DNA of 64,000 bases, taken from a bacterium (GTDB lineage: Bacteria > UBA8248). Positions 6,556 through 7,389 of the stretch are shown in pieces (the stretch's first letter is position 1; each line of letters begins with the position of its first letter). The DNA lies in assembly GCA_965221165.1 (NCBI GenBank), contig CBDCRP010000002.1, positions 64,001 through 128,000 of the forward strand, read 5' to 3'. Position numbers and translations under genes: made by a program. Below the pieces are notes generated by a model. The model was not told the DNA's origin and made no database searches. It saw nothing but the letters and a program-made list of their open reading frames with translations.

Positions 6556-7389
6556 ATGTCGAGCGACAACCCGAAAGGATATGCGAATCCCGACCTGCTC
6601 TGGTCGGCCGCGCAACTCAAAGAACGCATGGACGACCCGAATTTAAAAATCATCGACACGCGCCCCGGCGAGCGATACACGATGGGCCACATTCTCGACG
6701 CGCGGCATTTCGACGTCTACGGCGTGAACAGCGATGATTCGAGCGAGGCTCCGCTCCGCAATTTCTTCAACATGTGGGCGTTTCTGCTGGGGAACCGGGG
6801 AGTGTCGTTCGAGAACGCAATCGTCTTCTACGACGACTTCGTCGGCAACACGAGCGTACGCGGGTTCTGGATGCTCGAGCTTTTCGGCCACAAGGACGTC
6901 CACGTGCTCGACGGAGGCTACGGCGCATGGGAGCGGGCGGGTTTCGAGATGACGCGCGACGCAGAAGTGCCCCAAGCCGCTTCTTTTAAGATGGCGTTCG
7001 AGCCGCATCGCCTCGCCACGCGAGAAGACGTGATGGCGGCTATCGAGGACGACAACCACATGCTGCTCGACACCCGCTCGATAGAAGAATGGGAGGCAAC
7101 GAGCGTGCGCGCCAAGCGGAGCGGAATCATTCCCGGCGCCGTCTGGCAGGAGTGGCTCCGGCACTTGACGCCCGAGGGCGAGATGAAGCCTGCGGCGGAG
7201 CTTCGTGCCCAGTTCGAGGCCATCGGGATCACGCCCGAAAAAGAAGTGACCGCCTACTGACAGACGGGCTACCGTGCGGCGCACGGCTATTTCGCCCTGA
7301 GACTTCTGGATTATCCCAAAGTCAGAAACTACATGAGTTCCTGGAAGGAATGGGGCAATCGCGAGGATACGCCCATCGCGCAGGCGTAA
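6556..7389 (+). CDS. Tandem-domain rhodanese sulfurtransferase with selenocysteine at the catalytic position (TGA 7258-7260)
   Basis: Readthrough gives [52 protein letters not shown], completing the rhodanese C-terminus (YCxxGxR...YxxSWxEW); AAGGAGA RBS before ATG 6556. Confidence 0.9.
7261..7297 (+). promoter_or_regulatory. Putative bacterial SECIS element
   Basis: CCGTGC-GGC-GCACGG hairpin (7272-7286), G-initiated loop 17 nt after the UGA, lower GGGC/GCCC stem. Confidence 0.7.

Follow-up and report, generated by a model that had tools for sequence, protein, structure and literature searches.

Evidence for a selenocysteine-containing two-domain rhodanese encoded across an in-frame UGA in a UBA8248 bacterium

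Results

Organisation of the rhodanese locus

The window, the whole 64,000-nucleotide stretch of DNA that was analysed, corresponds to C2:64001-128000 of a 3.69-Mb, three-contig genome assembly (G000; completeness 96%, contamination 8.5%). The region around the gene under study contains the following features.

828–2180: porin gene, next after the xanthine-dehydrogenase-family cluster
2272–3138, reverse strand: FAD-binding subunit of the same Mo enzyme as the next feature (Pfam FAD_binding_5, CO_deh_flav_C)
3158–5455, reverse strand: Mo-binding large subunit, xanthine dehydrogenase/CO dehydrogenase family (Pfam MoCoBD_1, MoCoBD_2, Ald_Xan_dh_C)
5786–6535, forward strand: short-chain dehydrogenase/reductase (SDR) gene (Pfam adh_short_C2, 2.2e-46)
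6544–6549, forward strand: Shine-Dalgarno-like AAGGAG, read directly, 6 nt before the start codon of the rhodanese gene
6556–7389, forward strand: predicted full selenoprotein coding sequence of 277 residues, two-domain rhodanese of the RhdA/COG2897 type, with UGA 7258 as selenocysteine (Sec) (translation, PF00581, alignments)
6604–6936, forward strand: N-terminal rhodanese domain, residues 17–127 (best Pfam stretch), with neither Cys nor Sec at the loop position
7258–7260, forward strand: UGA codon, predicted Sec235, in the place of the catalytic Cys (alignment; TGA in close orthologues, TGC or TGT in distant ones)
7258–7275, forward strand: active-site loop U-Q-T-G-Y-R, aligned to CQTHHR of 1e0c and invariant in 28/28 Sec orthologues
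7261–7386, forward strand: 42 codons past the UGA, completing the catalytic domain (alignment to the C-terminus of solved rhodaneses)
7266–7297, forward strand: SECIS-type hairpin inside the coding sequence (MFE fold, geometry, near-invariant nucleotides, low synonymous variation)
7426–8241, reverse strand: DUF6602 gene, between the rhodanese and cupin genes

The rhodanese frame opens at ATG 6556, meets an in-frame TGA at 7258–7260 and continues through 42 sense codons to TAA at 7387–7389. Its readthrough product is 277 residues long and carries the active-site motif Y-U-Q-T-G-Y-R. The coordinates, codon count and length of about 277 residues given in the initial annotation were all correct on translation. 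That annotation had also placed the stop at TGA 7258 exactly on the catalytic Cys of a YCxxGxR loop, and both the frame and the structure alignments described below confirmed this placement.

The readthrough product is a two-domain rhodanese

The rhodanese domain PF00581 was found twice in the 277-residue product (two stretches, E 6.4e-32, 110.5 bits), and the Pfam matches, taken with the full-length alignments, define two rhodanese domains, of which the C-terminal one holds the catalytic residue. Residues 10–274 aligned to Azotobacter vinelandii RhdA (1e0c) at E 6e-40; the matches to Thermus 1uar and to the Escherichia coli 3-mercaptopyruvate sulfurtransferase SseA (1urh) reached E 2e-38 and E 3.9e-32, respectively. 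In all three alignments U235 falls on the catalytic Cys (the first residue of CQTHHRS in 1e0c). The residues after the UGA match the C-terminal strand and helix region of these solved structures, in agreement with the earlier proposal that the 42 codons complete the domain. Based on alignment to solved two-domain rhodaneses, we take the N-terminal domain (residues 17–127) to be the non-catalytic one and assign the remaining domain roles in the same provisional manner.

RhdA and 1uar share with the window gene the two-domain build and the position of the catalytic residue. The six-residue loop that begins at this residue includes an Arg and has the C-Q-T-x-x-R type of layout in both 1e0c (CQTHHR) and the window gene (UQTGYR); the RhdA loop and that of 1uar (CRIAER) begin with Cys, whereas the window gene has Sec at this place. 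SseA has the same fold and the same domain order, but its loop, of the CGSGVT type, differs from that of the window gene. The SseA equivalog NF008557 was ruled out as an assignment, with 134.3 bits against a cut-off of 250. The rhodanese_LYCAU selenoprotein family NF041203 was likewise ruled out (36.1 bits against a cut-off of 115). Small Sec rhodaneses of this kind (NF041203, and forms 1–3 as tabulated in PMC13188914) share the rhodanese domain with Sec at or near the active site; they are, however, single-domain proteins with a C-x-U or other motif, in contrast to the two-domain window gene.

The genome encodes the selenocysteine machinery and retains TGA as a stop

The initial annotation had proposed looking for the sel genes in the genome, and selA, selB and selD as well as tRNA-Sec were all found. 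selA was detected at C3:1580258 with 507 bits, and the SelB wing domain (73.9 bits) lies in a 652-residue frame about 2.7 kb downstream of selA. Both selD (330 bits, with one in-frame TGA) and a tRNA-Sec with the anticodon tca are located on the window's own contig. Among 1,995 open frames of at least 350 codons, TGA serves as the stop in 880, TAG in 601 and TAA in 514; since TGA closes more of these long frames than either TAG or TAA, it is not reassigned in this genome.

Sec and Cys forms are separated by relatedness

Proteins were searched in 61 genomes (the window's and 60 relatives), with stops read through and counted, and every full-length orthologue at 73–100% identity contained exactly one TGA. 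These 28 Sec orthologues come from 22 genomes of the same genus, the window's included, and from six genomes of three other genera of the same family; in one further genome of the same genus (G004) the contig ends within the gene, at residue 198. The catalytic codon is TGA in 28/28 of them, and no earlier stop occurs before about residue 277–287. In the seven orthologues at 47–68% identity it is TGC (four) or TGT (three). A second set of 35 loci, taken from metagenome contigs and named genome records and overlapping in part with the genomes of the first set, had TGA in 34, the remaining locus being cut by a contig end. Close relatives thus carry TGA rather than the TGT or TGC that the initial annotation had named as evidence against its reading, and Cys codons appear only in distant ones.

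Cys occupies the aligned position in all 23 full-length database homologues analysed, so that U aligns with Cys across solved structures, orthologues and database proteins of the COG2897 type, as had been anticipated. A maximum-likelihood tree was built from 58 rows, comprising the 35 orthologues and 23 database proteins chosen from 84 matches of 270–300 residues. In it, all 28 Sec rows group in a single clade (support 100/100) that sits inside the Cys rows, and with midpoint rooting a single Cys/Sec change suffices. Long branches were flagged among several Cys rows; the Sec clade was unaffected.

Public records list the gene as a 234-residue protein, named “sulfurtransferase” or “rhodanese-like domain-containing protein”, which bears out the earlier suspicion of misannotation as a truncated gene. 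Among the 120 best database proteins, 25 are such 234-residue stumps ending in (V/I)TAY.

Sequencing runs were also consulted. Run X1 (98% of sampled words) yielded a contig identical to the window over 6828–7389; X1 is one of two runs that hold most of the stretch and may be the source sample, and its contig is therefore not independent. Two RNA libraries from different studies contained contigs of relatives, about 89–93% alike, that span 6972–7386 and 6991–7386 and bridge the TGA; these contigs attest that the sequence occurs in RNA libraries, which falls short of showing transcription or readthrough. As a separate observation, several additional contigs match only 7252–7287, the 36-nt core of UGA and hairpin, with four differences each and with unrelated rhodanese-like flanks, and read depth in the 7252–7287 bin was about 10–20 times that of its neighbours. 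This suggests that other Sec rhodanese genes in the sampled communities share the UGA-plus-hairpin core.

A constrained hairpin follows the UGA

Bacterial SECIS elements of the E. coli fdhF type are hairpins that lie inside the coding region immediately 3' of the UGA and carry a loop G about 17–20 nt from it. In the MFE fold of the window gene, a lower stem pairs 7266–7271 with 7288–7297 and an upper stem of 6–7 bp pairs CCGUGC (7272–7277) with GCACGG (7281–7286), closed by the apical triloop GGC (7278–7280) 17 nt past the UGA. Counted from the UGA, the lower stem begins after 5 nt and the upper stem after 11 nt. The hairpin reported in the initial annotation is thus present; its distance of 17 nt, however, applies to the apical loop and not to the start of the hairpin. 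The element resembles the fdhF type in its place and its loop G, but differs in having a GGC triloop, a GC-rich stem of 6–7 bp and no evident bulged U.

When this geometry was defined strictly (at least six Watson-Crick pairs, a triloop with G at its first or second base, and a distance from the TGA of exactly 17 nt), it was found after 21 of the 109,992 TGA trinucleotides of the genome; under a looser definition (loop of 3–5 nt, 15–20 nt away) it was found after 413/109,992. The folding energy of the 81-nt stretch is by itself unremarkable (z = -1.17; 22/200 shuffles fold equally well). An Rfam scan of 7150–7450 returned no family and only two chance matches (miRNA, snoRNA) at E 5–10.

Nucleotide conservation is concentrated at the hairpin. 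Synonymous-codon entropy was computed for 32 distinct sequences of the Sec form as averages of nine degenerate codons per window, and the eight lowest of the 234 values all lie at codons -5 to +11 (0.10–0.32 versus a median of 0.745). Farther 3' of the hairpin, synonymous sites vary freely while the residues are kept; the majority-residue share is 0.909 in the tail after the UGA versus 0.889 upstream of it. A module of 29 nt starting at the TGA, with two positions left free, occurs exactly in 32 of 51 genomes of the phylum, representing four genera, and a reversed control gave 0. There is one copy per genome except in the window's genome, which has two.

Besides these, the module was matched only in G025 and G029, both with Cys forms, at three mismatches. 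Relative to the Sec forms, the changes are TGA to TGC, G to T at base 1 of codon 241 and G to C at base 2 of codon 244. Codon 241 encodes Ala in the Sec forms versus Ser in these Cys forms, and codon 244 encodes Gly versus Ala. The variant bases of codons 241 and 244 pair with the first base of H243 and the third base of Y239. The two replacements that distinguish the Sec clade would therefore appear to build two of the seven stem pairs.

No compensatory covariation was found in the hairpin, even with seven metagenome loci added, because the stem is nearly invariant. The stem variants that do occur weaken pairing: U7275 is C in two genomes, producing a C.A mismatch, and position 7287 is C in the window and two others and U in most, with loss of the seventh pair. 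Conservation of a stem-loop with a loop G among the Sec forms is accordingly seen in nucleotide invariance and synonymous-site constraint, without covariation.

Other candidate Sec genes of the genome share the hairpin layout

Two further Sec genes of the same genome were found by homology alone, not by structure.

C2:975065-976027 of G000, reverse strand: selD, itself a selenoprotein gene, with the motif K-A-G-G-U-G-S-K (locus L004)
C3:1059118-1059936 of G000, reverse strand: second, distant two-domain Sec rhodanese, with TGA at the catalytic position (locus L034)

The selD hairpin has a 7-bp stem and a GGA triloop 17 nt after the UGA. The second Sec rhodanese is 31% identical to the window gene, has the loop L-Y-U-R-L-S-H-R and is followed by a 9-bp stem with a GUC triloop 19 nt after the UGA. 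The earlier view that the geometry fits bacterial SECIS elements gains support from the layout that these two genes share with the window gene. Among the relatives, the second rhodanese has TGA forms in G001, G008, G015 and G019 and stop-free forms in others.

In a crude genome-wide scan, TGA codons that lie between open frames and precede a hairpin of this kind were collected. They are numerous, and the sites include the following.

C2 of G000: C2:875241, C2:1353027, C2:870727, C2:1176818
C3 of G000: C3:540437, C3:1378173, C3:1883797, C3:1093274
C3 of G000, further sites: C3:1878569, C3:1430435, C3:1621821, C3:1442457

By motif recognition only, with reference to families tabulated in PMC13188914, the scan yielded five UGSC proteins, three OsmC-like proteins and one CMD/AhpD-like C-x-x-U protein, together with one thioredoxin-fold T-U-P-P protein and two P-A-T-U-G-T-G proteins, all named from these motifs. 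Across the 16 candidate Sec genes of the genome, a triloop beginning with G sits on a stem of 6–9 bp in 14/16, and the apical loop lies 16–20 nt past the UGA in 16/16; as 14 of the 16 comparison genes were picked by the hairpin filter of the scan, independent comparison is confined to selD and the second rhodanese. The genome looks selenoprotein-rich.

A second copy of the SDR-rhodanese pair was observed at C3:37089-37920 of G000 on the reverse strand (loci L030/L031), with 92% DNA identity; its TGA and hairpin are those of the window gene. In this copy the rhodanese is broken into two frames by an indel of one base near codon 66. The copy may represent a pseudogene, a misassembly or, given the assembly contamination noted above, DNA of a second strain.

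Genomic context

The SDR gene ends 20 nt before the rhodanese start; its own start codon at 5786 is provisional, as the open frame begins at 5663. The SDR-rhodanese pair is kept in 28/28 orthologous loci, and the two genes are probably co-transcribed. The spot 3' of the rhodanese is variable: in relatives the cupin gene is either about 130 nt to about 1.6 kb away or absent from the flank.

A divergent Mo large subunit stands beside the pair in 24/28 loci, that is, wherever the flank reaches far enough. G025 has it near its Cys form, and a version with 40% identity adjoins the Cys orthologues of two genomes from one genus of another family, where the other neighbours are different (LigB and GcvT-like). 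The Mo enzyme was absent from the vicinity of five further Cys orthologues and of one Cys homologue of G030. A 2Fe-2S small-subunit gene was not seen among ORFs of at least 50 residues in the 2180–5455 cluster, up to the porin gene. Nor did any maturation gene of the XdhC, YqeB or YqeC type come to notice among the ORFs examined. As the SDR and Mo context is not general among distant Cys orthologues, a link with the Mo enzyme stays speculative.

Discussion

Interpretation of the locus and alternative readings

Positions 6556–7389 very probably constitute one two-domain rhodanese gene of the RhdA/COG2897 type whose catalytic residue is Sec, made by hairpin-directed recoding of the UGA; the selenoenzyme predicted in the initial annotation is supported by the agreement of machinery, Sec/Cys pattern and conserved hairpin. 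The simplest competing account is that the TGA is a true stop, the gene being a truncated or decaying rhodanese of 234 residues that lacks the catalytic loop, with the downstream frame a relic. Gene callers and public records do give the 234-residue product, and TGA is the commonest stop of the genome. Against this, 28/28 orthologues from four genera, with identities as low as 73%, keep both the TGA and the open 42-codon tail, and conservation in the tail equals that in the protein body. The position of the stop coincides exactly with the catalytic residue, synonymous variation is frozen immediately 3' of it, and the genome has the full Sec machinery. We regard a true stop as barely credible. 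It is also very improbable that the UGA is read through with a residue other than Sec, whether Trp, Cys or Gly by a near-cognate or suppressor tRNA, or Cys mis-charged on tRNA-Sec. Such readthrough sits poorly with the 880/1,995 long frames that TGA closes, which indicate that the codon is not reassigned, with the Cys of homologues at the site, and with the match between the window hairpin and those of selD and the other candidate Sec genes of the genome.

A different question is whether the same recoding serves another job, with the protein acting as a selenium carrier in the form of a perselenide, or as the dedicated supplier of sulfur or selenium to the cofactor of the Mo enzyme next to it. 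Selenium can be bound by rhodanese in vitro, and in NCBIfam the window gene weakly matches ExtH, the rhodanese of selenite/tellurite operons, with 36.5 bits (cut-off 200). The divergent Mo large subunit recurs beside the pair in 24/28 loci and also in G025 and the two genomes of another family, and the Sargasso catalogue includes, among its tabulated families, a Sec-containing MoeB family (PMC1088965). The adjacency is, however, seen almost only among close kin, in which synteny is shared anyway; the two distant cases represent one genus with otherwise different neighbours (LigB, GcvT-like), and the five further Cys orthologues and the Cys homologue of G030 stand away from any such enzyme. We therefore consider another job unlikely. 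Its most specific version, in which the Sec rhodanese and the SDR form a dedicated chalcogen donor for the sulfido or selenido ligand of the divergent Mo enzyme and Sec became fixed in the clade because a selenolate carrier speeds the transfer, is a conjecture that we hold to be distinctly unlikely.

Returning to hairpin-directed Sec insertion in a rhodanese, the anatomy of the gene and the presence of the machinery suggest how the product would be made. SelB carrying Sec-tRNA(Sec) would bind the hairpin at 7266–7297, so that UGA 7258 is not read as a stop and Sec is inserted at position 235; the 42 codons that follow would then complete the catalytic domain. By analogy with the family, the selenolate may accept a sulfane sulfur from thiosulfate, a persulfide or a similar donor; the resulting enzyme Se-S intermediate would then hand the sulfur to a thiophilic acceptor. 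In evolutionary terms, the Sec form arose once from a Cys form in this lineage, and the replacements of Ser by Ala at 241 and of Ala or Thr by Gly at 244 may have created two pairs of the SECIS stem.

Relation to catalogued Sec rhodaneses

Sec rhodaneses of this type have been catalogued since 2005, as the initial annotation had held in calling them known. A Sec “rhodanese-related sulfurtransferase, COG2897” was reported in that year from the Sargasso Sea, with three sequences in the catalogue (PMC1088965), and “Sulfurtransferase COG2897” was listed as a Sec family in the GOS data in 2008 (PMC2398784). The Sec rhodanese family is tabulated in one review (PMC9312934), and another lists a rhodanese-like “form 4” with the motif UxxG (PMC13188914). 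According to these table entries, the catalogued family is of the same two-domain type, with Sec in place of the catalytic Cys and the U-x-x-G motif, which reads UQTG in the window gene; the likeness is at the level of table entries and motif. Like the window gene, the catalogued family is, as these sources present it, predicted by bioinformatics only.

For the clade of the window, whose relatives are titled Nitrospinota or Tectomicrobia MAGs and whose gene stands in public records as the 234-residue stump, the BSepDB paper ranks three UBA8248 genomes among the ten most selenoprotein-rich bacteria (PMC13326102). One of these three ranked genomes has the same name as a relative found here (PMC13326102). 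One supplementary file of the paper does not mention rhodanese or COG2897 (PMC13326102). The window gene is a well-supported selenoprotein gene of a catalogued family that has been mis-called as truncated, in a lineage with relatives listed as selenoprotein-rich in that ranking (PMC13326102).

Knowledge of selenoproteins in general is unchanged by this gene, and its practical value lies in annotation: across the clade it is recorded as a 234-residue protein without the catalytic loop, and metabolic readings based on these stump records consequently miss a predicted active sulfurtransferase and undercount selenoproteins. The clade also offers a clean natural Cys-to-Sec pair with one origin. The 29-nt modules of the two forms differ by exactly three base changes, two of which alter amino acids and would build the stem. 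This makes the gene a tidy example of installing a recoding signal inside an active-site coding region.
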